From assembly GCA_964630685.1 (NCBI GenBank), contig CAZVVW010000007.1, forward strand, positions 1 through 44,323: a stretch of DNA of 44,323 nt, given 5' to 3'. Positions 2-40,753 of this stretch are shown here, piece by piece. Below the pieces are notes generated by a model that made no database searches, was not told where the DNA came from, and worked only from the letters and a program-made list of their open reading frames with translations. A program made the translations under genes and the position numbers. Numbering within the stretch: the stretch's first letter is position 1; each line of letters opens with the position of its first letter. This DNA is from an uncultured Methanosarcinales archaeon (GTDB lineage Archaea; Nanobdellota; Nanobdellia; Woesearchaeales; BS150m-G63).

Positions 2-1114
2 ATCATATTACAAGCAACAAAGGGGTTAAGTAAATTACATGCTAAAGGTATTAGGCATAGAGACATTAAACCTTCAAATATACTTGCTTATGAGCAATAT
101 AATGAATGGGCGCTTGGAGATTATGGCACTTCATCTAATCGAGAATCAACTAAAAGCAGAAAAAATGCAGAAACTTTTCAATCGCCTGAATTTAGATTAA
201 ATAAAACAAAGGGAGTATTTAATTATGGATTTGAGGAAGATATATTCCAGTTAGGGGTTACTTATTATATGGTCCTTTCTGATGAAGAAGAAGGATTTGA
301 TAGGGGTTGGCAAAAAAAAGGAGGACCTTTACAAAACCACATTTATACCACTATTGAAAAAATGAATAAAAGTAAAGAAGAAAAATATTTCTTAAAAAGG
401 TTATGTGGAGAAAAGGCGCCAGATTCTAACAAAATACCTAAGGGAAAAACATTAGAAGACTATAGATATACTCACATAAATCAATTTATTGAAGAAGTAG
501 AAAGATATCTGAAAACGGGATCAATTAACAAACCTGTTGTTAAGAAAAAAATTAAAAAATTACCTAAACCACTTGTTAAAAAAGAAGTTGAAACTAAGAT
601 TGTTGAGGGAAATAAATATACTATTCCAAAATCTACACCTCAACCTAAACCAATTATTGAAGATCCTGCAGATCATCCTAATTATCAAAGATTTTTGACA
701 GAACACGATAATTTTTTAAATTGTTTAAATGGCGCAAAAAAAAATAATAATGGAAAATGGGGCACTATCAATCATCAAACAATTGATGGATTAATGAAAT
801 CATGTGACTCTTATTTAATTTGGGCAAATAAAAAAGATGTTCAAAAAGTTCCTCAGAGAAATGCGTTATTTGAATCTGGAAGAAATGAATATGATAAAAT
901 AAGAAATAAAGAATGGGATTTGCTTAAATCATTTGAAGAAGGACTAAATAAAAATGTTACTAAGCCAGATTTAATATATTTTATTAAAACAATATTTTTA
1001 TGGGGTCCGCCATTTACAACCCCTGATAAAGAAAGAGACAAAGGTAAAGCAAGATATGGTTTAAATGAATTAGATAAAATTCCTTATATTAAAGAATTAA
1101 AAAATGGAAAGTAA
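2..1114 (+). CDS. Hanks-type Ser/Thr protein kinase, 5'-truncated by the window edge, with a Lys/Pro-rich linker and an unknown C-terminal domain
   Basis: The frame of ORF 269..1114 is open from base 2 and reads ...KLHAKGIRHRDIKPSNIL...WALGDYG...FQSPE...EEDIFQLG. These are the catalytic loop HRDxKxxN, a DFG-like DYG, an APE-like SPE and subdomain IX D. Confidence 0.9.
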   Translation: MILQATKGLSKLHAKGIRHRDIKPSNILAYEQYNEWALGDYGTSSNRESTKSRKNAETFQSPEFRLNKTKGVFNYGFEEDIFQLGVTYYMVLSDEEEGFDRGWQKKGGPLQNHIYTTIEKMNKSKEEKYFLKRLCGEKAPDSNKIPKGKTLEDYRYTHINQFIEEVERYLKTGSINKPVVKKKIKKLPKPLVKKEVETKIVEGNKYTIPKSTPQPKPIIEDPADHPNYQRFLTEHDNFLNCLNGAKKNNNGKWGTINHQTIDGLMKSCDSYLIWANKKDVQKVPQRNALFESGRNEYDKIRNKEWDLLKSFEEGLNKNVTKPDLIYFIKTIFLWGPPFTTPDKERDKGKARYGLNELDKIPYIKELKNGK

Positions 1115-2087
1115 AAACCTAGAACAAAAACTTGAAGGGATAATTGGAGAGATTAAATCAGAAATTAAACCAAATGTAAAAAAGTTATGGGAAGAGTATG
1201 AAAATGCTTTAACTGATTGTTATGGGGCAAAATTCAAAGATTATGAGTATGAAAAGGCGTTGGGTGTATTAGAAAAGATAATCAAAGAAGAACCAAATAA
1301 TAGTAAAGTTTGGGTAAAAAGAGGTGATTTGTGTAGTTTACATCTAAAGAGAGATGATGCTTTAAGATGTTATGATAGGGCAATAGAAATAAATCCCAAA
1401 AATACAGATGCTTTAGTTGGAAAAGCAGAAGAATATGAATATGAGGATATGCCTGAAAAAGCATTGAAATTCTACAATAAAGCATTAGAAATAACGCCGA
1501 GAGATATAGATATTCTTGAAGAGAAGGCTTCTTTGTTAATTTATGATTTAGAAAGACCAAGAGAAGCGTTGAAAGTTTATAATCAAATATTGAAAATAGA
1601 TCCTGAAAATGATTTTGCGTGGAATGATAAAGCAGAAATATTGAATTCTCTTGGAGAATATGTTGGTGCACTAAAATGTTCAAACAAAGCAATAGGGATA
1701 GATTCAATTGATGGAGAATACTATTTCCATAAAGGTGTTGCTTTAGATGGACTTGGAAGATTTAAAGAAGCATATGATGCTTATTATTCTGCAGAAATAG
1801 CAAATAAAGCAGTATTTGATAAAGATAATATTCAAATACTGAATAATCAAGGTGCTGCTGCTGCTGAGATTGGAAGATATAATAGAGCGCTACGTTGTTT
1901 CGATAAAGCTTTAGAAATTTCTCCAAGATATAAAAAAGCTAAAAAAAATAAATCGATTGTTTCCAAAGCATTAGAAAAATCAAAAAAACTGCCTGATGGA
2001 TTAATTCCACTTATGAAAAAAGTGTTTTCAAAAGAGTGTGTTTCTATCCCTAAAGAACTAAAAGAAACCGCTATATATCCAATTTAA
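1104..2087 (+). CDS. TPR-repeat protein carrying the shared NLEQKLEGII leader
   Basis: Multiple 34-aa TPR motifs (A..CYDRAIEINPKN..A); N-terminus MESKNLEQKLEGIIGEIK. Confidence 0.9.
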   Translation: MESKNLEQKLEGIIGEIKSEIKPNVKKLWEEYENALTDCYGAKFKDYEYEKALGVLEKIIKEEPNNSKVWVKRGDLCSLHLKRDDALRCYDRAIEINPKNTDALVGKAEEYEYEDMPEKALKFYNKALEITPRDIDILEEKASLLIYDLERPREALKVYNQILKIDPENDFAWNDKAEILNSLGEYVGALKCSNKAIGIDSIDGEYYFHKGVALDGLGRFKEAYDAYYSAEIANKAVFDKDNIQILNNQGAAAAEIGRYNRALRCFDKALEISPRYKKAKKNKSIVSKALEKSKKLPDGLIPLMKKVFSKECVSIPKELKETAIYPI

Positions 2088-2092
2088 TTAAA

Positions 2093-3199
2093 ATGGAAAA
2101 AAACCTAGAACAAAAACTTGAAGGGATAATTGGAGAGATTAAAGAAATAGAAAAAACTGATGTAAAAATAAAATATTCTTCTAAAATAATAGAAAAAATA
2201 AAAAAAAGTACTGTTGCAAAATTAAAATGGCCTTTATTATATGTTGCGGGAACAATGATATTGGGCACAATAATACTGTACTATTCTCCTTCGCCAAACA
2301 AATCTCAAAATCACATAAAAAATAAAGGCACTATTAATGAAATTGTAATAGATTCTACTTTAACAGAAAATATAATGGGAGATTCTAAAGATTCATTAGA
2401 ATTAACTTTAAAAGATGGTCGCTATTGGCACAACAAAGGAATTAAATTACATAATTTAGAAGATTATGAAAGTGCAATTAAATGTTATGATTATGCTATT
2501 GAAATAGATTCTGAAGATGATATTGTCTGGAGTAATAGGGCTGCTGCTTTGAACAGTCTTGGAAGATTTGAAGAATCGGTTGAATCCTATGATAACTCAT
2601 TAGAAATAAGCCTTAATGACCCTATTAATTTTGGTTATAGAATTCTAAATAGTCTTAGATTAAATAACAAAGCATCTGTATTGATTGAGTTGGGAAAATT
2701 GGAAGAAGCAATTGAATCCTATGATAAAGCTATTAAACTTAATCCAGGAGATGAAGTACTCTATTATAACAAAGGGGATGTATTGGATGATCTTAACAGA
2801 AATAATGAAGCTATTGAATGTTATAATAAAGCTATTGAAATTAACCCTTTATCAGGTATATCTTGGAATAATAAAGGAAGGGTGCTAAAGGAACAAAAAA
2901 AATTGGAAGATGCCTTATATTGTTACAATAAGGCTATCGAGATAAATCAAAACAATAGTATGGCTTGGAATAATAAAGGGGATGTCTTAGAAGATCAAAA
3001 AAAATTGGAAGATGCCTTATATTGTTACAATAAGGCTATTGAAATAAATCCTAAAAATGATAGTGCTTGGAATAATAAAGGAAATATGTTTTATAGTGAG
3101 AGGAATACTGAAGATGCTTTAAAATGTTATACTATGGCTGTTGAAATAAACCCTAATAATCAAAATTCATTAAACATGATAAAATTACTGAGTGATTAA
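2093..3199 (+). CDS. TPR-repeat protein with one predicted TM helix, carrying the shared leader
   Basis: N-terminus MEKNLEQKLEGIIGEIK; hydrophobic segment WPLLYVAGTMILGTIILYY; repeated AWNNKG...CYNKAIEINP TPRs. Confidence 0.9.
   Translation: MEKNLEQKLEGIIGEIKEIEKTDVKIKYSSKIIEKIKKSTVAKLKWPLLYVAGTMILGTIILYYSPSPNKSQNHIKNKGTINEIVIDSTLTENIMGDSKDSLELTLKDGRYWHNKGIKLHNLEDYESAIKCYDYAIEIDSEDDIVWSNRAAALNSLGRFEESVESYDNSLEISLNDPINFGYRILNSLRLNNKASVLIELGKLEEAIESYDKAIKLNPGDEVLYYNKGDVLDDLNRNNEAIECYNKAIEINPLSGISWNNKGRVLKEQKKLEDALYCYNKAIEINQNNSMAWNNKGDVLEDQKKLEDALYCYNKAIEINPKNDSAWNNKGNMFYSERNTEDALKCYTMAVEINPNNQNSLNMIKLLSD
2894..3039 (+). repeat. Recent in-frame TPR unit duplication (44-bp exact repeat, 102-bp period)
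   Basis: CAAAAAAAATTGGAAGATGCCTTATATTGTTACAATAAGGCTAT occurs at 2894-2937 and 2996-3039. Confidence 0.9.
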
Positions 3200-3200
3200 T

Positions 3201-3908
3201 ATGAAAGAAAAAAATCTTGAACAAAAACTTGAAGGGATTATTGGATTTTTTAATTCAAGAAACTCAGAGAAAAGGGTTGAAAAATCAAAAAAAAATGTTG
3301 ATGAGATTAGAGATTACAGTATAGACCCTGAAATTGCTAAAAAAAGATACACTGAATATAAAATAGAGATATTTAAGAAGTTAAGTAAACTTTTTGTTGA
3401 TGGAGATATTCATTCTAGAGATGAATTAATTTCAAAAATTAATGGGTGGGCTGGCAATTATTGTAGAGATTTAAGAAAAAGTAAAGATTATGACCACTCA
3501 AGTTATATTAGGGGTTTAGTTGATTTAGGGTTACTCAAAAGAAATAAAGGCGATAGTCTATTTGAAGGGTGTGCTAAAAAAGTGAGTTATGAAGCTCCTA
3601 AAAAATTAGAAAAATCTGCTCAAGAAGATGACCTCATTATTGTAAAAAGAATGAGTGGAAGCCCCTATAACAAACATAAAACAAAAATTCTCAAAGAATT
3701 AAGTGGTGGATTTTCTCCTGGAACTGTTTATTCTAGAGATGATGCTATTTTATTAATTAAAATGCTGGCTGATGATTATGATCCTAATTTGTTAAATCAA
3801 AATGGGTATGATTATATGCATTTATTGAGAGGCTTGATAGATATTGGGCATCTCAATAGAAATAAAACTGGTACCAAATATTGTAAAGGAACTCCAAGAG
3901 ATGAATAA
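3201..3908 (+). CDS. Protein with the shared leader and two tandem DUF2087-like winged-helix domains
   Basis: ATG at 3201 gives MKEKNLEQKLEGIIG. Two internal repeats of F..G..[HY]SRD...DY....RGL[VI]D.G.L.RN resemble the DUF2087 consensus as I recall it. Confidence 0.65.
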   Translation: MKEKNLEQKLEGIIGFFNSRNSEKRVEKSKKNVDEIRDYSIDPEIAKKRYTEYKIEIFKKLSKLFVDGDIHSRDELISKINGWAGNYCRDLRKSKDYDHSSYIRGLVDLGLLKRNKGDSLFEGCAKKVSYEAPKKLEKSAQEDDLIIVKRMSGSPYNKHKTKILKELSGGFSPGTVYSRDDAILLIKMLADDYDPNLLNQNGYDYMHLLRGLIDIGHLNRNKTGTKYCKGTPRDE

Positions 3909-3909
3909 C

Positions 3910-4278
3910 ATGGCAAATAAAAATCTTGAATCTAAACTTGAAGACATTATTAGTGAGATTAAGAAGACCCCTAAAAAAACTCAAACATATGGGCCTTTTG
4001 AAAATGAGCCCTATGAAAACAATAAAAGGTTTAAAAAAAGATATGGGTTACTTAAAGAATGTTACAGAGGATTATTTCATTGTATGGATGATTTTTTTGA
4101 AGTTGATAAAAGGGGGGGAGCATTAAGAAATGTTTTTTTTGGCTCTCTTTTTGCAATATGGTTGGGAACTACAATTACATATTGTAACGGCTGTTTTAAT
4201 GAAGAATCAAATGTTCCTGCTGTAGAAGAAAGGATGGGGTATGAAAACAATTCCGACCAATATGGGGTGGTAGAATAA
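3910..4278 (+). CDS. Small membrane protein carrying the shared leader
   Basis: ATG at 3910, just after the upstream stop, gives MANKNLESKLEDIISEIKK; hydrophobic segment VFFGSLFAIWLGTTITY. Confidence 0.75.
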   Translation: MANKNLESKLEDIISEIKKTPKKTQTYGPFENEPYENNKRFKKRYGLLKECYRGLFHCMDDFFEVDKRGGALRNVFFGSLFAIWLGTTITYCNGCFNEESNVPAVEERMGYENNSDQYGVVE

Positions 4279-4279
4279 A

Positions 4280-4342
4280 ATGAATAAAAAACCTAATTTA
4301 GAACAGCAAATTGAGAGCATAGTTGAATTAAATAAAAAATGA
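4280..4342 (+). CDS. 20-aa leader-only mini-ORF (MNKKPNLEQQIESIVELNKK)
   Basis: The ATG is 1 nt after the previous stop, and its TGA overlaps the next ATG (ATGA at 4339-4342). The sequence matches the array leader motif. Confidence 0.6.
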   Translation: MNKKPNLEQQIESIVELNKK

Positions 4343-5574
4343 AACAATATAAAAACTCGCAAAACCTGGAAACCAAGGTTGAAGGGATTATTGAAAAGAT
4401 CAGATTGCCTAGTCTTGAACGTATGACTAAATTTACTGAATATGATGTTAAAGAAGATATCGTTGTTCCTAAAGGAAGATATGTTGTAGATAAAGATATT
4501 GTTATTAAGAAAGAAGGGGGTTTGAAAATTGCTTCTGGAACTGAATTCTATTTCAAAAAAGATGCTGGAATTGTTGTTTATGGATATTTACAGGCGAAAG
4601 GAACTGGAGAAGAGAGAATTTTATTTTCTTCTTATGGTGATGTATGGAAAAATATATCTATATTTAATTTAGGAGATAAAGAATCTGAGCTTGAGTACTG
4701 TGATATAACAAAAGGAACTGGGAGACTTATTGAAGATTTAATACACTCAAAAAATTCAGAAAAGTTCCTTGGAGAAATGAAAAAATATGATGAACTTGGC
4801 GGAGGCATACTTATTATTAAATCAAATCCTTTGATACAAAATTGTGATATCTATGAAAACCAAGCATTTCATGGTGGTGGAATGTATATCTGTAAATTCT
4901 CTAAACCTCCTTTAGAAAAAACAATTATAGAAAAAAACAAAAGCAAAGTGGGGGGAGGGATTTATATCCTTGAATCTGCACCTCAATTAAAAAATGGTTG
5001 TTATATATCCCAAAATGAAGCCGAATATATGGGTGGAGGTATTTGTGCTTCGAGATCTGGATTATCATTAAATAAAATCTATATAAATTCAAATAGTGCA
5101 GATTCTCCAGGAATTGGGGGGGGGATCTATTTAAGTAATTCTGAATTAAAAATGAATAGTGGAGGTATAAGCAAAAATAATTCCAAAATGGGTGGTGGTG
5201 GTGCTTGGTTTTACAAATCAATCGTGACTATAGAAAATTCAGTAATAGAGGATAATATAACAAAAGGAAGTGGTGGCGGATTATATGCTCGACTTTCTGA
5301 TATTGGTATAGAAAATGCAATAATTGAGAATAATGAAGCAAAAATTGGTGGGGGAATGTGCATAGATAAATGCGATCGATTAGCGATAAGGGAGAACTTA
5401 ATAAATTATAATACTGCTGAAAAAGGTGGAGGTGTTTTTCATAGGGGTTCAGAACCAAAAAGTTTGGGTTGGTTAAAAAATAAAATAGTATATCTTTGTG
5501 GAGACTCAATTAAATTGGATAATAATGTATCTAACAATCAAGTAGATAATATTTATGGTCCTGATAAAAAATGA
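4339..5574 (+). CDS. Right-handed beta-helix protein (Pmp-like GGG[IL]Y / NxA repeats) carrying the shared leader
   Basis: Repeated N.A..GGG[IML][YC] motifs; N-terminus MKQYKNSQNLETKVEGIIEKIR. Confidence 0.85.
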   Translation: MKQYKNSQNLETKVEGIIEKIRLPSLERMTKFTEYDVKEDIVVPKGRYVVDKDIVIKKEGGLKIASGTEFYFKKDAGIVVYGYLQAKGTGEERILFSSYGDVWKNISIFNLGDKESELEYCDITKGTGRLIEDLIHSKNSEKFLGEMKKYDELGGGILIIKSNPLIQNCDIYENQAFHGGGMYICKFSKPPLEKTIIEKNKSKVGGGIYILESAPQLKNGCYISQNEAEYMGGGICASRSGLSLNKIYINSNSADSPGIGGGIYLSNSELKMNSGGISKNNSKMGGGGAWFYKSIVTIENSVIEDNITKGSGGGLYARLSDIGIENAIIENNEAKIGGGMCIDKCDRLAIRENLINYNTAEKGGGVFHRGSEPKSLGWLKNKIVYLCGDSIKLDNNVSNNQVDNIYGPDKK

Positions 5575-5903
5575 AAGATGACCAAAATTTAGAACAAAAA
5601 CTTGAAGGGATTGTTGAACAGATAAAAGTAGATGTTTCAGAAAAAGAAAAAGATTTATTTGAAAAAGCTAAAAAATTATATTTTGAGGGAAATTATGGTG
5701 AATCAATAGAATGTTATGATAAAGCCATTGAAATAAATCCAGAATATAGCTCTGCTTGGAATAATAAAGGGAATGCTTTAGACGAACAAGGAAAATTAGA
5801 ACGAGCAATCGAATGCTATGATAAGGCAATTGAAATAAATCCTGAATTTGATATTGCTAAAAATAATAGAAGAATTGTTTTAGGAGAATTAAATGAAAAA
5901 TGA
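5571..5903 (+). CDS. Short TPR protein carrying the shared leader
   Basis: MKDDQNLEQKLEGIVEQIK followed by two ECYDKAIEINPE TPR units. Confidence 0.88.
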   Translation: MKDDQNLEQKLEGIVEQIKVDVSEKEKDLFEKAKKLYFEGNYGESIECYDKAIEINPEYSSAWNNKGNALDEQGKLERAIECYDKAIEINPEFDIAKNNRRIVLGELNEK

Positions 5904-6388
5904 AAGAAAAAGATAAAAACTCGCAAAACCTGGAAACCAAGGTTAAAGAAATTGTTGGAAAGATCAAAGGAAAAGAAGTAGAATATTTAATCAAAAAAGG
6001 AGATGCTTTTTATGGGGCAGAGAATTTTAAAGAAGCGATTGAGTGTTATGATAAAATTCTAGCGGAAGATCGGGACAATTTGGAAGTTTGGTTAAATAAA
6101 GGAAATTCATTACTTTATTTAAGGAAATTGGATGAATCTATAACTTCTTTTGATAACATTATTAAAACAGGATATTCTAAATATCGTTCTTCAGCATACA
6201 TAGGTAAAGCAGCAGCATTATACGAACAAGAAAAATATGAAGAGGCGGTGGAAGCTATGGAAAAATCAAGGATAAATGACATTGGGGTACGCTTTGCATT
6301 AAAGGATGTTAAAAAAAAGGCAGCATATCAAAAAGCAAAATGGCCTAAAAAGGTTATGTTGAATATTCAAAAACTTTTTTATGATTAA
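5900..6388 (+). CDS. TPR protein carrying the shared leader
   Basis: MKEKDKNSQNLETKVKEIVGKIK; TPR motifs EAIECYDKIL and WLNKGNSL. Confidence 0.85.
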   Translation: MKEKDKNSQNLETKVKEIVGKIKGKEVEYLIKKGDAFYGAENFKEAIECYDKILAEDRDNLEVWLNKGNSLLYLRKLDESITSFDNIIKTGYSKYRSSAYIGKAAALYEQEKYEEAVEAMEKSRINDIGVRFALKDVKKKAAYQKAKWPKKVMLNIQKLFYD

Positions 6389-6516
6389 AAAAAGTGCATG
6401 AGATTATTTGTAAAGTAATGGGGGATATAAAAAAAAGAGAATCTAGTAAATAAACTTTATGAAACATATAGTGATTCTGTAACTATCAAAATCGATTCTA
6501 TTAAGTGATGATAAAG

Positions 6517-6678
6517 AAATAAAAAAATACGCCAACGCCTGAGATTTGGAACCTACGTTTTGGGTCGTAGCCCCCCAGATGCAATATAAGTTAACTTCGT
6601 TAACTTAATTACATAGCACACTCTTTAATGGATTATCTTAATTGAAAAACACAATAAATAAAAAAATACGCCAACGCC
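6517..6678 (-). repeat. 23-bp direct repeat of the tRNA-Ser 3' end plus trailer, flanking a structured element
   Basis: AAATAAAAAAATACGCCAACGCC occurs at 6517-6539 and 6656-6678 (139-bp period). Confidence 0.9.
6541..6612 (-). other. tRNA-associated 72-nt structured element, copy 1
   Basis: The reverse complement GTAATTAAGTTAACGAAGTTAACTTATATTGCATCTGGGGGGCTACGACCCAAAACGTAGGTTCCAAATCTC aligns without gaps to 40651-40722 (56/72 identical). Confidence 0.85.
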
Positions 6679-6784
6679 CGGATTTGAACCGGGAATCCCA
6701 AAGGGACCGGCTGTTTTGGAAAAAACAAATGCTTTTTCTTTTTTCACTCAAGGCCGGCGCAATACCAGGTTATGCGACGTTGGC
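6669..6784 (-). tRNA. tRNA-Ser(TGA) with a 34-nt intron at 37/38 (intron 6713-6746)
   Basis: Acceptor GCCAACG/CGTTGGC with G73; anticodon stem CCGGC/GCCGG around CT-TGA-G; long variable arm; T arm CCCGG TTCAAAT CCGGG; relaxed BHB motif at the intron. Confidence 0.92.
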
Positions 6785-6808
6785 ATAATGGTTTAGATAA
6801 TTAAGTGA

Positions 6809-6816
6809 TTTATAAA
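6809..6816 (-). promoter_or_regulatory. TATA box of tRNA-Ser
   Basis: TTTATAAA about 25 nt upstream of the tRNA 5' end. Confidence 0.6.
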
Positions 6817-7026
6817 AGTTATTGTTAGTTCAAAATCCAATTTTAATATCCTTTTTTAAGGTTTTCGAAAGGTTTATTAATAAAATTTAGAAAAGTTTAT
6901 CGACGAGAAATTTTTAAAAATAGGAACCTTTATATATAACTTGTGTGCTTTGTTTATAAAACTATTGTATCTATCAATAGGTGTTAAGTTTTAATGTTCA
7001 ATTATTAAATCTTTCGGGTGGTAAAT

Positions 7027-7956
7027 ATGGCAGACGAAAAATATGTTAAAAAATGCCCTGAATGTGGCAGTATAAACTTGTTCTGGAATCGTGACCGAGG
7101 AGAGATAATCTGTAAAGATTGTGGCCTTGTGGTCGAAGAAAAAATGATTGACTTTGGTCAAGAATGGCGAGAGTTTGATCAAAAAGGAGAATCTAAAAGA
7201 AGGGCTGGAGCTCCAATGACTTATACTCAATATGACCAAGGATTAGGTACTAGAGTTGGTACATCTTCTGATTTGTATGGTCTTGGTAAGAAAGACAGAA
7301 ATAAATTCTTTAGATTAAGAAAATGGCAGAACAGAATTTCAACTGCCATTGAAAGAAACCTTAAACTGGCTTTGGCTGAATTGAAAAGGGTCGGTTCTTA
7401 TTTAAAATTACCAAAATCTGTAGAAGAAGAAGCAGCAAGAATCTACACAATGGCTGTTCAGAAAGGATTAGTAAGGGGAAGAAGTATGGAGAGTGTTGTT
7501 GCTGGAGCTTTATACGCTGCATGCAGAAGACACGAAGTTCCCCGTACTTTGGATGAATTAAGTGAAGCTAGTGGAATTGAGAAAAAAGAAATTGGAAGAA
7601 CTTACAGATTTGTTACAAGAGAATTGGGAATGAATATTCTACCAAGTAATCCTGAAGAATACATAGCAAGATTTGCTTCTGCACTAAAATTAAGCCCAGA
7701 ATCTCAATCAAAATCAATTGATATTCTTAAAAAAGCACAAAAAGCAGAATTAACTTCTGGTAGGGGTCCAACAGGAATCGCTGCAGCTGCATTATATGTG
7801 AGTGCATTAATTCATGGCGAAAAGAGAACTCAAAGAGAAGTTGCAGATGTTGCTGGTGTGACAGAAGTTACTATCAGAAACAGATACAAGGAATTGCTTG
7901 CTAAATTAAATCTTGAAAAAAATATTAAGAAAATCAAGAAAAAGAATAAAAAATAA
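7027..7956 (+). CDS. tfb: Transcription initiation factor IIB (TFB)
   Basis: Zn ribbon CPECG...CKDCG, B-reader EWREF, and cyclin repeats with GRSMESVVAGALY and TQREVADVAGVTEVTIRNRY. Confidence 0.98.
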   Translation: MADEKYVKKCPECGSINLFWNRDRGEIICKDCGLVVEEKMIDFGQEWREFDQKGESKRRAGAPMTYTQYDQGLGTRVGTSSDLYGLGKKDRNKFFRLRKWQNRISTAIERNLKLALAELKRVGSYLKLPKSVEEEAARIYTMAVQKGLVRGRSMESVVAGALYAACRRHEVPRTLDELSEASGIEKKEIGRTYRFVTRELGMNILPSNPEEYIARFASALKLSPESQSKSIDILKKAQKAELTSGRGPTGIAAAALYVSALIHGEKRTQREVADVAGVTEVTIRNRYKELLAKLNLEKNIKKIKKKNKK

Positions 7957-7968
7957 TTTCTTTTTCTT

Positions 7969-11585: not shown

Positions 11586-12242
11586 ATGAAAAGTAAACTA
11601 GAAAATATATTAAAATTAGTACAAGATAATCCTGTAGATTTTAATAGATTTAGTGAAGATATCCATCAAATTAATCCAGAATCTAGAGTCAAATCTATTT
11701 CTAGTATACTAAGTAGAATTAATATTCCTAAACATTCAACCATTTTAGATATCGGAACTGGTTATGGTGCTGTTTTATTAAATGCGCTAGGCTATAATGT
11801 TATTGGGGTTGAAATTAATGGCCCTAAATTAAAAGAAGGGATGAATTATTGGGGTAAATTAGGTATTGATTTTGAATTAACTAATAATTTGTCTTCTGTC
11901 GTAAATGCTTCTGGAAAATTATATTTTTCAGCAAAAGATTCTAGAAATTTAGGTGAAATTCCAGATTCTTCTATTGATATGGTTACATCTTTTTATCTTA
12001 GTGGATATATGGTTGGAAAAAATGGTGCATATGGAGATGTTGGAAGAATGTTAAAACCTAAAGGAAATTTAACTGCAACCACTCAAGGTTATTCTGATAT
12101 GCCTGAATTTTTTAAAGAATTAATGGTAAATCTTATGGGTGAATTTATGGAACCTAAAAATTTAAAATTAACTTCAACATTTACAATTGATGACCCTTTA
12201 GTTCATGATAAATTTGTGCTTATTTATAGTAAATTAAAATAA
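11586..12242 (+). CDS. Class I SAM-dependent methyltransferase
   Basis: ILDIGTGYG, VIGVEIN, DSSIDMV and RMLKPKG motifs. Confidence 0.85.
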   Translation: MKSKLENILKLVQDNPVDFNRFSEDIHQINPESRVKSISSILSRINIPKHSTILDIGTGYGAVLLNALGYNVIGVEINGPKLKEGMNYWGKLGIDFELTNNLSSVVNASGKLYFSAKDSRNLGEIPDSSIDMVTSFYLSGYMVGKNGAYGDVGRMLKPKGNLTATTQGYSDMPEFFKELMVNLMGEFMEPKNLKLTSTFTIDDPLVHDKFVLIYSKLK

Positions 12243-12297
12243 GAGATAATTAAAATAAGAGATAATTAAAATAAGAGATAATTAAAATAAAAGATAA
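12232..12297 (+). repeat. 16-bp tandem repeat, 4 copies (AATTAAAATAAGAGAT)
   Basis: Three exact copies and one with a single mismatch; the first copy contains the methyltransferase stop codon. Confidence 0.92.
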
Positions 12298-28239: not shown

Positions 28240-29091
28240 ATGGCATCCATATATAACACAAACCCAAACGAGTTGATAGAGAAAGTGGCTGAACAGCTCA
28301 AAAGCTTTGAAGAGATCAAAGCACCTAGCTGGGCTTCTTTTGTTAAAACAGGACATTCCAAAGAAAGACCTCCAGTTGAAAAAGATTGGTGGTATATCAG
28401 ATTTGCAGCTGTATTAAGGTCAATATATAAATTAGGGCCTGTCGGCGTTTCAAAATTAAGAACTAAATATGGTAGTAAAAAAAATAGAGGCGTAAGACCT
28501 TCACATTTCTATAAAGGTTCAGGAAATATTCTAAGGAAAATTCTTCAACAAGGAGAAAAAGCTGGATTATTAAAACAAGTTGAAAAAGGAGTTCATAAAG
28601 GAAGAATTCTTACTCCAAAAGGAAAATCTTTACTAGATAAAACTGCAGCAAGTATACTTAAAAATAAACCAAAAACATCTACAGTTCCCAAACCAAAACT
28701 TGTAGAGAAAGAAAAAACGGAAACTCAACCTAAAGAAGCTGTTAAACCAAAACCAGCTAAGGAAGAAGAATCTAAAAAAGATTCTTCAGCACTTCCAGAA
28801 AAAGGAAGCAAAGAAGAAATGGTTAAAGAAGCAGAACCAAAAAAAGAACAAAAAAGTAAACGAGAAACACCTAAAGAAGCTGTTAAAGAAGAGATCAAAA
28901 AAGATTCAGATTCTAAAAAAATAGCAGAAGTTGAAAAAGAAGTCAAGGAAATTAAAGAAAAAGAATTAAAAAAAGAAAAAAAAGAACCTCAAGAAAAAAC
29001 AAAAAAAGATAAGGATAAAGAAGAAATTAAAAAAGTTGAAGAGTTAGTAAAAGATATTCAAACTAAAGCAATAAAAAAATCAAAAAAATAA
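28240..29091 (+). CDS. rps19e: 30S ribosomal protein S19e with a long K/E-rich C-terminal extension
   Basis: FVKTGHSKERPP..DWWYIR, GPVGVSKLRTKYG and GRILTPKGKSLLD motifs. Confidence 0.97.
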   Translation: MASIYNTNPNELIEKVAEQLKSFEEIKAPSWASFVKTGHSKERPPVEKDWWYIRFAAVLRSIYKLGPVGVSKLRTKYGSKKNRGVRPSHFYKGSGNILRKILQQGEKAGLLKQVEKGVHKGRILTPKGKSLLDKTAASILKNKPKTSTVPKPKLVEKEKTETQPKEAVKPKPAKEEESKKDSSALPEKGSKEEMVKEAEPKKEQKSKRETPKEAVKEEIKKDSDSKKIAEVEKEVKEIKEKELKKEKKEPQEKTKKDKDKEEIKKVEELVKDIQTKAIKKSKK

Positions 29092-29101
29092 TATTAACAA
29101 A

Positions 29102-29275
29102 ATGGCAACATTCACACACTTAAGCAAAAAGAAAAGATTGGCAAAAAAAGGAAGACGAACTAGATGGGCTCCTTTTTGGACAGTTCCAAAAATATATGGA
29201 TTAGGAAGAAGAATCCACCCAGGAAGGCACACTAGCGTAAAAAGATCATGGAGAAGAACTAACACCAAAGCATGA
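29102..29275 (+). CDS. rpl39e: 50S ribosomal protein L39e
   Basis: MATFTHLSKKKRLAKKGRRTRWAPFW...IHP...KRSWRRT; immediately upstream of L31e. Confidence 0.92.
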   Translation: MATFTHLSKKKRLAKKGRRTRWAPFWTVPKIYGLGRRIHPGRHTSVKRSWRRTNTKA

Positions 29276-29928
29276 TGGCAGACGAAAAACCAATCGAAAG
29301 AACATATAATGTTCCATTAAGAAAAGAATTCTTGAAAGTTCCTAAACACAAAAGGGCAAAAAAAGCAGTTACAGCTTTAAAACAATTCTTAGTTAAGCAC
29401 ATGAAATCAGAAAACATTAAAGTGGGTGCTTATGTTAATAAAGAAATATGGAAAAGGGGAATAAAAAGTCCTCCTCACCATGTCAAAGTTAATGTTACTA
29501 AAGATAAAGAAGGGTTGGTAAATGCAGAACTCGTTGGAGCTCCTGTAGAAACACCTAAAGAAGAAAAAGAGACTAAAGAAGCAAAATCTAAAAAAGATTC
29601 TTCAGCACTTTCAAAAAAAGGAAGCAAAGAAGAATCTAAAAAAGATTCTTCAACCAAAGAAGAATCTAAAAAAGATTCTTCAGCACTTCCAGAAAAAGGA
29701 AGCAAAGAAGAATCTAAAAAAGATTCTTCAACCAAAGAAGAATCTAAAAAAGATTCTTCAGCACTTCCAGAAAAAGGAAGCAAAGAAGAATCTAAAAAAG
29801 ATTCTTCAACCAAAGAAGAATCTAAAAAAGATTCTTCAGCACTTCCAGAAAAAGGAAGCAAAGAAGAATCTAAAGAAAAATCACCTAAAGAATCACCAAA
29901 AAAAGATACAGAAAAAAAAGATGAATAA
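29272..29928 (+). CDS. rpl31e: 50S ribosomal protein L31e with a repetitive C-terminal extension
   Basis: ERTYNVPLR, KRAKKAV, KHMK and IWKRGIKSPP motifs. Confidence 0.97.
   Translation: MMADEKPIERTYNVPLRKEFLKVPKHKRAKKAVTALKQFLVKHMKSENIKVGAYVNKEIWKRGIKSPPHHVKVNVTKDKEGLVNAELVGAPVETPKEEKETKEAKSKKDSSALSKKGSKEESKKDSSTKEESKKDSSALPEKGSKEESKKDSSTKEESKKDSSALPEKGSKEESKKDSSTKEESKKDSSALPEKGSKEESKEKSPKESPKKDTEKKDE
29581..29874 (+). repeat. In-frame 78-bp-period tandem array of palindromic units in rpl31e, with one copy in rps19e (28763-28818)
   Basis: Alternating 48-bp and 30-bp units; six begin with the perfect palindrome GAAGAATCT-AAAAA-AGATTCTTC. Confidence 0.95.
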
Positions 29929-40488: not shown

Positions 40489-40595
40489 GGGCCTGTAGCT
40501 CAGTCTGGTTAGAGCGCTGGTCTTATATGACTACGCTTTAAACAAAAAGCACCTAAGACAGCCAGAAGTCGCGAGTTCAAATCTCGCCAGGCCCA
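40489..40595 (+). tRNA. tRNA-Ile(TAT) with a 32-nt intron at 37/38 (intron 40528-40559)
   Basis: Acceptor GGGCCTG/CAGGCCC; D stem GCTC/GAGC; anticodon stem CTGGT/GCCAG around CT-TAT-A; BHB central helix CTTA/TAAG; T arm GCGAG TTCAAAT CTCGC. Confidence 0.93.
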
Positions 40596-40753
40596 CCTTT
40601 ATATTAATTAATTATTTTAAATTAATGAGATTAATCAAAAAAATTACAAAGTGATTAAATCAATGCAGTTGATTTACATCGCTTCTCTGTGGCTACGGCA
40701 GAAAACGTAGGTTCCAAATCTCGCCAGGCCCACCTTTATATTAATTAATTATT
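40578..40753 (+). repeat. 39-bp direct repeat of the tRNA-Ile 3' end plus trailer, flanking a structured element
   Basis: CAAATCTCGCCAGGCCCACCTTTATATTAATTAATTATT occurs at 40578-40616 and 40715-40753 (137-bp period). Confidence 0.93.
40651..40722 (+). other. tRNA-associated 72-nt structured element, copy 2
   Basis: GTGATTAAATCAATGCAGTTGATTTACATCGCTTCTCTGTGGCTACGGCAGAAAACGTAGGTTCCAAATCTC; homologous to the reverse complement of 6541-6612. Confidence 0.85.

Follow-up and report, generated by a model that had tools for sequence, protein, structure and literature searches.

A short N-terminal leader shared by the genes of a kinase-linked array in a marine archaeon, and its probable copying at the DNA level

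Constant N-terminal parts are known in multigene families such as the pilE/pilS cassettes, the CdiA/Rhs orphan toxin cassettes and the lipoproteins of Mycoplasma and Borrelia, and a short N-terminal helix or motif that is carried by many cargos and serves one hub is known from F-box adaptors and from the encapsulation peptides of bacterial microcompartments. Here we describe an array of eight genes, each beginning with the same short leader, in a 44,323-nt contig (CAZVVW010000007.1; this whole stretch is referred to as the window) from the genome of a tiny marine archaeon. As in the families with constant N-termini, a constant 5' segment would provide homology for conversion and for exchange of the variable 3' cargo; here, however, each cassette comes with a start codon and leader of its own, all are probably expressed, a single expression site is absent, the constant part measures only ~45-60 nt, and neither a signal peptide nor toxin or immunity domains were found among the array proteins. 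Unlike F-box adaptors and encapsulation peptides, to which it has no relation of sequence or fold, the array comes with no Skp1-like or shell protein, and the proposed hub is a kinase domain family.

Parts of a study of the prochlorosin (procA) families of marine picocyanobacteria (10.1101/2020.03.09.984088) describe many genes per genome, in which a conserved leader part leads to one enzyme and the rest is diverse; they propose localised 'diversifying recombination', with diversity arising through indels and not through domain swapping. To the extent covered by those parts, the likeness lies in a constant leader-encoding 5' part, a diverse part behind it and a single enzyme partner. In procA, however, a short core peptide forms the cargo and undergoes modification and cleavage, and the partner is a lanthipeptide synthetase, whereas here the cargos are folded proteins of 110-411 aa and the partner would be a Hanks-type kinase. 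A class III-IV lanthipeptide system, or another system of peptides that ribosomes synthesize and that are modified post-translationally, was rejected as a candidate, since the kinase scores 26 bits (LanL) and 22 bits (LanKC) against NCBIfam cut-offs of 650 and 575, and the cargos are domain proteins of the sizes just given. A double-glycine bacteriocin leader was likewise rejected by inspection, there being no GG at the expected position. Parts of two reports on focal adhesion kinase (PMC5818605, PMC2572193) describe a FAT domain, a bundle of helices at the C-terminus that other proteins engage through a short amphipathic helix of the L-D/E-x-L-L type; similarly, the kinase beside our array has a predicted all-alpha C-terminal domain, along one helix of which (residues 427-452) the leader is predicted to lie. 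Unlike the FAT pair, the putative pair described here is archaeal, and its motif stands at the very N-terminus and is encoded in the operon of the kinase. Moreover, Foldseek found no match to this domain in the PDB at E <= 0.001 (best E 1.1), and thus the domain is not a FAT member. A literature search found no description of the leader or of the module that accompanies it, and the system belongs to none of the families set out above.

The genome that contains the window (G000; 936 kb in 35 contigs, ~27-33% G+C; the window is its contig C7) was compared with that of a sister species of the same genus (G001), with a third genome of this genus (G002) and with five further genomes (G141, G164, G292, G085 and G239) that bear the gene module described below. 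(Genes are labelled g followed by their start in the window; B_ labels denote G001 genes.) Eight plus-strand open reading frames (ORFs) are tightly packed between 1104 and 6388, with stops and starts that overlap or abut (Table 1), and all eight carry, 3-9 residues from the N-terminus, the leader consensus N-L-E-x-K-L/V-E-G-I-I/V-x-x-I-K. The leader is absent from all other ORFs of the window. One further copy is found in the genome (C1 4327..3320, minus strand; C1_4327), where it precedes a TPR part and a Gly-rich membrane part. The cargos of the array are of the TPR, membrane segment plus TPR, DUF2087, small-protein and beta-helix types, and one ORF of 20 aa has no cargo at all; its tail, ELNKK*, resembles the tail of g5571, ELNEK*. 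The 16 leaders of G000 and G001 have helical hydrophobic moments of 0.38-0.70. No N-terminus of the array contains a 19-residue window with a mean hydropathy >= 1.6, as a Sec, Tat or class III signal peptide would in its first ~25 residues, and the first hydrophobic segment of g2093 spans residues 44-62. A loose form of the motif, defined after the sequences had been viewed, is present within the N-terminal 30 aa in 4 of 862 other ORFs of G000. (Note that two adjacent minus-strand genes at C1:127470-128805 start MDLEKRL... and ...AEDLEKVIGQ, like leader variants of G239; these we counted as background.)

The original prediction held that the leader is copied at the DNA level between genes whose cargos are otherwise unrelated, that identity extends to wobble positions, and that recent recombination or gene conversion at the leader is responsible. 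The two repeats on which it rested, of 45 and 32 nt, proved exact and maximal, and the core attributed to the genes at 1104, 2093, 3201 and 5571 is the 20-mer GAACAAAAACTTGAAGGGAT, found at 1122, 2108, 3219 and 5592. Four occurrences of this 20-mer compare with 0.02 expected by chance, and none of 100 shuffles reached four; among 30 sequences of 44 kb simulated with a first-order Markov model, the mean length of the longest exact direct repeat was 17.1 nt and the maximum 19. For the 45-mer, two independent copies of the same peptide would choose identical codons under G000 usage with a probability of 5e-5; for 30 nt of the 32-mer the figure is 1.3e-3. Moreover, rare codons are used in the 32-mer (TCG 2%, CTG 3%, ACC 9%), and this exact choice has a chance of 1e-7. 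Thus, codon bias does not account for the identity of the repeats. That the cargos are unrelated is true of the 32-bp pair (beta-helix versus TPR) and not of the 45-bp pair, in which both are TPR proteins, although their architecture differs in that g2093 has a membrane segment. The DNA of the 45-bp pair diverges directly beyond the repeat; the 45 identical nucleotides sit within ~91 nt of 70% identity, which represent an older homologous N-terminal region, and the similarity of the g1104 and g2093 proteins runs ~9 residues beyond the tract. For the 32-bp pair, the 28 nt before the repeat, which reach upstream of the start codons into the 3' tail of the preceding gene, are 86% identical (4320-4347 versus 5881-5908), a likeness that ties the tail of the leader-only ORF to that of g5571.

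Comparison with the sister species argues that this copying is recent and confined to the leader. Over a 42-nt leader core, g1104 and g2093 are 100% identical, in contrast to 69% for their G001 counterparts. The conserved leader glycine is encoded by GGG in 6/6 of the G000 leaders that have it and by GGA in 4/4 of such G001 leaders (GGG makes up 15% of Gly codons genome-wide), and this synonymous difference is seen in three ortholog pairs. Here we count as firm the pairs g1104/B_5841 (63%), g3201/B_6490 (66%) and g4339/B_2799 (49%), as judged by blastp. (Note that g2093 matches B_3888 in its N-terminal part only, over 2107-2340 at 34%, where the latter continues into MORN repeats and not TPR, and that C1_4327 and B_4780, which have a similar architecture, are 28.6% identical and were not counted as firm orthologs.) G001 has copied units of its own. 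A near-exact extended leader of 62-75 nt, EEQPLLDSEKQSQEDQNLE, is found on TPR-Gly, TM-MORN (TM, transmembrane) and PP2C cargos at two loci, and a unit of ~100 nt, made up of the 3'-terminal ~59 nt of the kinase gene and the leader, occurs three times; its tails are 86-88% identical within G001, whereas the G001 kinase tail is 68% identical to its G000 ortholog. After the two MORN genes the tail copy is non-coding and supplies their last codons in another frame. In G164, from another family of the order, an exact 27-nt repeat lies within that genome's own leader variant. As far as sequence comparison can tell, the pattern is that of gene conversion, with paralogs more alike than orthologs over the tract, diverged flanks and species-specific synonymous states. 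We regard short-tract conversion together with recombinational turnover of the cassettes as highly probable.

The turnover is apparent when the array is compared between the two species. As a test, the original prediction proposed to look among related genomes for changes in gene order or content, and such changes are seen: between a kinase flank (77.7% nt identity) and a flank of TFB and tRNA genes (90%), both of which are kept in G001 (contig C18), the cassettes differ. From kinase to TFB, and with L denoting the leader, the window reads L-TPR, L-TM-TPR, L-DUF2087, L-small, L-only, L-beta-helix, L-TPR and L-TPR, and G001 reads L-MORN, L-DUF2087, L-TPR (the g1104 ortholog), L-TPR-Gly, L-TM-MORN and L-beta-helix. 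It was further proposed that the leader could act as the crossover point, and here the result is mixed. Two blocks of homology end at leader ends: one (11-1155) extends from the kinase across the first leader, after which the window continues with TPR and G001 with MORN, and the other (3280-3961) extends from DUF2087 past its stop codon and across the next leader. Other breakpoints, however, lie off the leader, namely at 2340, behind the membrane segment, and ~60 nt inside the 3' end of the G001 kinase gene; moreover, because the genes abut, a whole-gene rearrangement of any kind would seem to break at the leader. The outcome of cargo exchange is seen between two species; the exact crossover sites are inferred, the leader being a candidate for them.

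Cassettes also differ between the species at a second locus, whose neighbours encode a 700-aa TM-TPR-kinase-like protein, an AbrB/MazE-type product and an AsnC-type regulator. Downstream of the regulator, G000 has a TPR gene and L-TPR-Gly, and G001 has L-PP2C, a 69-aa leader-only protein and PP2C; in the L-PP2C gene, the ~45 N-terminal residues of the G001 beta-helix gene recur. The N-terminus of the 700-aa protein, LNSKLEDIVKK, is leader-like by eye. Searches farther afield returned little. A degenerate DNA pattern for NLEQKLEGI matched, among genome contigs, only the G001 contig (two overlapping loci) and five single bacterial sequences, which were taken as chance matches. A protein search with residues 1-40 of g1104 returned only the query, from one candidate, and is uninformative on spread, and a metagenome scan with the G001 kinase returned one short locus (L025, 2,274 nt) that was of no use.

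The kinase gene that the array follows is split: residues 1-124 are encoded at the end of C1 (C1:155466-155837) and, with ~5 residues missing before its start, the window continues the gene, so that the two contigs are neighbours. Upstream on C1 are a divergent TrmB-type regulator, a 783-aa protein with a weakly LDH/MDH-like N-terminus, and a PP2C gene, followed by the kinase. The ~780-aa protein, PP2C and kinase form a module that is conserved in G000, G001, G141, G164, G292, G085 and G239, and in 7/7 of the module-bearing genomes examined the gene or genes directly 3' of the kinase start with [NDST]-[LI]-E-.... The corresponding N-termini are MVKDKSLEERLDAV in G141 (two beta-helix paralogs), MVNK(N/D)LEELLKR in G164 (three genes), MTLEEEFLGPLD in G292 (a beta-helix gene), ...NIEREIDEVIELL in G085 and MTEDLEQKLGQI in G239 (plus two more genes). 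Beta-helix proteins are therefore a cargo type behind the kinase in other families of the order as well (G141, G292). A search with the kinase matched 34/301 genomes, mostly through generic kinase-domain matches. (This tally includes G114, on which no claim rests.) With PADLOC, the kinase gave only generic kinase-domain matches (MkoA, mad6, PD-T4-6) and the other seven proteins gave none; a known anti-phage defence system was rejected as a candidate, the model matches being generic and sub-threshold only. In the ESM Atlas, neither the C-terminal part of the kinase nor the 783-aa protein had a usable match (best score 0.82).

The C-terminal domain of the kinase (window ~644-1111, 154 residues) contains the motif IFLWGPPFTT, and the best of five AlphaFold2 models shows it as all-alpha with a predicted local distance difference test score (pLDDT) of 85.1; the other four models reached 70, 66, 48 and 44. 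Its family comprises 39 representative clusters (E <= 0.001) among 1.84 billion proteins. One representative, P0016, has a kinase, the helical domain and TPR repeats in a single chain. (Three others, P0028, P0038 and P0041, have the helical domain behind the Rossmann-like N-domain of the ~780-aa family and no kinase domain.) When the G001 kinase was modelled together with a 45-aa leader, the complex scored 0.70 (runs 0.70, 0.70 and 0.02) and the controls 0.00, 0.01 and 0.49. The pass mark was reached by 116/157 solved complexes and by 2/215 mismatched pairs, counts that are only a rough guide because our own alignments were used. Contact agreement was at least 60%, and the pLDDT of the leader partner was at least 42, such that its own fold is uncertain. 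In the model, leader residues N5, L6, E7, I10, I13, V14 and I17 would contact kinase helix 427-452, the IFLWGPPFTT motif and the C-terminal tail, and the invariant N5, L6 and E7 would touch the invariant motif and that tail. On these predictions, a kinase-docking function of the leader is possible, and we put it forward tentatively.

Taken together, we favour, with moderate confidence, an explanation that combines a kinase-docking leader helix with conversion and shuffling based on the leader. The leader would form an N-terminal amphipathic helix of ~15 residues that tags otherwise unrelated proteins (TPR, MORN, beta-helix, DUF2087, and small or membrane proteins) as partners of the module. 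This helix is predicted to dock on the C-terminal helical domain of the kinase, and the cargo would be a substrate, an adaptor or a sensor subunit of the kinase/phosphatase pair. Because all copies would have to fit one receptor and are encoded head to tail in one operon, short stretches of homology would be maintained, on which homologous recombination could act in two ways. Short-tract gene conversion renders some pairs of leaders identical, as the sequence comparison shows, and unequal or ectopic exchange at a junction unit consisting of the preceding 3' tail, the start codon and the leader may duplicate, delete, move and re-fuse cargo.

Several observations weigh against this combined explanation. 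Only two species carry this leader variant, and in G002 (79% complete) the leader, the kinase and the 780-aa gene are all absent. Each leader in the three firm ortholog pairs is nearer a same-genome paralog than its ortholog, but with eight paralogs against one ortholog this is partly expected and by itself weak evidence. Mean leader identity is 0.69 and 0.70 within the two genomes and 0.68 between them, so that any homogenisation is pairwise and local, not global. The docking margin is thin (+0.21, with 0.20 needed, and one run at 0.02), and a leader that scores 0.49 with an unrelated protein is a generally sticky helix. A profile of the genus leader found nothing significant among the 39 representatives (best E 0.11) and misses the leader-like stretch in P0016, which thus rests on visual inspection. 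No conserved phospho-acceptor follows the leader, the next 30 residues containing 0-8 Ser/Thr at variable positions. Finally, public contigs assembled with k=31 break inside every repeat, and the linkage of the cassettes rests on the original assembly.

Those public contigs (their runs are labelled X) are our population data. In them, each repeat copy was recovered together with its own flank, with 0 differing letters, in four runs from two studies, and 5/7 of the array proteins looked up were found exactly in other public assemblies (longest contig each 150,703 nt); the g2093 and g3910 proteins had no exact sequence there. One public strain variant of the g3201 protein differs solely by I14V, within the leader. 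The only direct leader-to-leader junction is an X5 contig of 1,928 nt that joins 4348 to 5913 via the 32-bp repeat and encodes an in-frame hybrid, P0007, with the N-terminus of g4339 and the body of g5900; since X5 has no coverage at 4381-4445 and 5836-5912, the junction is equally likely to be an artefact of the graph or a true deletion variant. A contig that joins 5624 to 2179 (a g5571-type leader and a g2093-type body; runs X1 and X2, depth 3-3.8) was kept as a lead only. One of the 102-bp TPR units of g2093 is skipped (2893 to 2996) in contigs of X3 and X5 and kept in X1 and X2, which may reflect differing numbers of TPR units among the samples or a loop that collapsed in the k=31 graph. 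Depth is raised over 703-1170, which suggests the presence of a related, more abundant strain. Weaker features of the layout, namely joints of 997 to 6348 and 2104 to 6665 (sides of 20-21 nt), a 5875-to-542 feature at depth 29-39 and many loose ends, probably come from other organisms or from AT-rich matches.

We considered whether the leader might be a shared protein signal that is not meant for the kinase, such as a coiled coil between cargos, a docking helix for the ~780-aa protein or PP2C, or a membrane or export signal, in which case the events at the DNA level would be the same. By inspection, the hydrophobic residues L6, L10, I13 and I17 are spaced as in a heptad pattern; the score against an unrelated protein points the same way, as do membrane segments behind the leader in some cargos; the ~780-aa protein and PP2C are linked to leader genes as strictly as the kinase is; and the helical domain is also fused to the Rossmann-like N-domain in P0028 and P0038. 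We nevertheless think such a signal unlikely, if well worth keeping in mind, given that the kinase model cleared its controls and brings invariant residues of one partner into contact with those of the other, that a natural fusion of kinase and TPR exists in P0016, and that the first 20 residues have no hydrophobic signal-peptide core. It is a good deal less likely that selection on the mRNA or DNA (as a site for a small RNA or an RNA-binding protein, or a re-initiation signal), and not recombination, preserves the identity. The genes are translationally coupled and, by inspection, mostly without upstream Shine-Dalgarno-like sequences; the leader makes repeated use of the rare codons GGG and CTT; and CTTGAAG recurs, by inspection, in the leaders of other genomes, in G164 in another reading frame. 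In none of the eight leader regions, however, was an RNA structure found (z-scores -1.50 to +0.95), and in other families the motif is kept as a peptide with different DNA. Moreover, the copied units reach into non-coding or other-frame tails of preceding genes, and leader variants move with ~45 aa of N-terminal protein onto new cargo.

That the genes are old tandem paralogs, kept alike by purifying selection and AT-driven codon bias with no recent exchange, we hold to be very improbable. The low G+C content of the genome and the one-sidedness of its codon usage (75-86% of K, E, Q and N codons fall to one codon) would favour such a history, as would the equal mean identities within and between genomes. 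They are opposed by the probabilities calculated above and the rarity of the shared codons, by the recurrence of the GGG/GGA difference in three ortholog pairs, and by a tract of 100% identity within diverged homologous flanks whose G001 pair is at 69%. Similarly slight is the chance that the repeats or the order of the cassettes arose artificially in metagenome assembly or binning, such as through chimeric joins at short repeats. The breaks of the k=31 contigs, which leave the linkage unconfirmed by them, the split kinase gene at the contig end and the raised depth would all be in keeping with an artefact. Typical sequencing reads, on the other hand, are longer than 45-nt repeats. Furthermore, the repeat copies and flanks were reproduced across the four runs, exact array proteins occur in other assemblies, and the separately assembled sister species has the same phenomenon with other sequences. 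Least probable of all, in our estimation, is a dedicated site-specific cassette system of the integron or shufflon kind, in which a recombinase would cut out cassettes as circles and put them back at the leader. The array does abut a tRNA gene, and in G001 cargo lies between direct repeats (kinase tail plus leader), as integration of a circle would leave. Against this, neither the array nor the 16 flanking ORFs scanned yielded a recombinase, integrase or transposase family, no inverted-repeat or hairpin signal was found at the leaders, the degenerate leader pattern had 0 matches in viral contigs, and the breakpoints do not fall at one fixed position.

Table 1. Features of the array, its flanks and the second locus (positions are those of the window unless another contig is given)
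Feature	Positions	Strand	Remarks
Ser/Thr protein kinase, 3' part, 370 aa	2..1114	+	Pfam Pkinase 2.6e-13
Leader + TPR protein, 327 aa (g1104)	1104..2087	+	Start overlaps kinase stop; G001 ortholog 63% identical
45-bp exact repeat, copy 1	1113..1157	+	Encodes KNLEQKLEGIIGEIK
Leader + membrane segment + TPR protein, 368 aa (g2093)	2093..3199	+	
45-bp exact repeat, copy 2	2099..2143	+	
Two 102-bp TPR units	2894..3039	+	44-bp exact repeat, 2894-2937 = 2996-3039
Leader + duplicated DUF2087-like protein, 235 aa (g3201)	3201..3908	+	Pfam DUF2087 9e-11; G001 ortholog 66% identical
Leader + small protein, 122 aa (g3910)	3910..4278	+	No family match; no G001 counterpart
Leader-only ORF, 20 aa, MNKKPNLEQQIESIVELNKK	4280..4342	+	Stop overlaps next start; 30.3 bits to leader profile
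Leader + right-handed beta-helix protein, 411 aa (g4339)	4339..5574	+	G001 ortholog 49% identical
32-bp exact repeat, copy 1	4349..4380	+	
Leader + 2-TPR protein, 110 aa (g5571)	5571..5903	+	
Leader + TPR protein, 162 aa (g5900)	5900..6388	+	
32-bp exact repeat, copy 2	5913..5944	+	
Intron-bearing tRNA gene	6669..6784	-	Right edge of variable array; Rfam tRNA 42.9 bits, E 1.1e-7; missed by ARAGORN
TFB (TFIIB-like) gene, conserved right flank	7018..7956	+	6517-7959 90% identical to G001
Second locus, L001	3320-8538 (G000:C1)		
Second locus, L023	178-5024 (G001:C17)		

Other repeats were noted in the window. A 26-nt copy of the tRNA 3' end lies 139 nt away (6514-6539 versus 6653-6678, 96% identical), and a 39-nt exact direct repeat at 40578-40616 and 40715-40753, 137 nt apart and with G+C-rich first ~20 bases, may likewise derive from a tRNA end by duplication. 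At 28763-29874, long tandem repeats with a period of 78 nt are nearly perfect, encode a low-complexity stretch rich in Lys, Glu and Ser and include a 182-nt exact repeat (29615-29796 = 29693-29874), and a short tandem array with the 16-nt unit AATTAAAATAAGAGAT lies at 12232-12290, right after a gene ending at 12242.

For annotation, the locus explains breaks in assemblies, and its leader-only mini-ORF and chimeric genes risk mis-called starts. At its broadest, the finding would describe a plug-in hub in some Woesearchaeota, in which the kinase/PP2C pair recruits exchangeable TPR, MORN, beta-helix, FG-GAP and DUF2087 proteins, as sensors or adaptors, through a docking helix that binds to a kinase helical domain not described before, and the DNA for the helix serves as the homology for conversion, duplication, deletion, movement between two loci and re-fusion; we regard this full version as rather doubtful. 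If it holds, closely related strains would differ in what the kinase senses, and the hub would be a prokaryotic counterpart of F-box-type adaptor families, with cassette variation in addition. In DPANN archaea, whose genomes are very small, few signalling systems can be recognised, and here ~5 kb are spent on fast-changing, putative partners of a rare kinase module. Should the docking prove true, the domain and the leader would be a new pair of peptide-recognition domain and motif, they would make Ser/Thr signalling in uncultured episymbiotic archaea accessible to tests, and the locus would be a clear natural case of homologous recombination over ~30-75 nt reshaping an operon between sister species.

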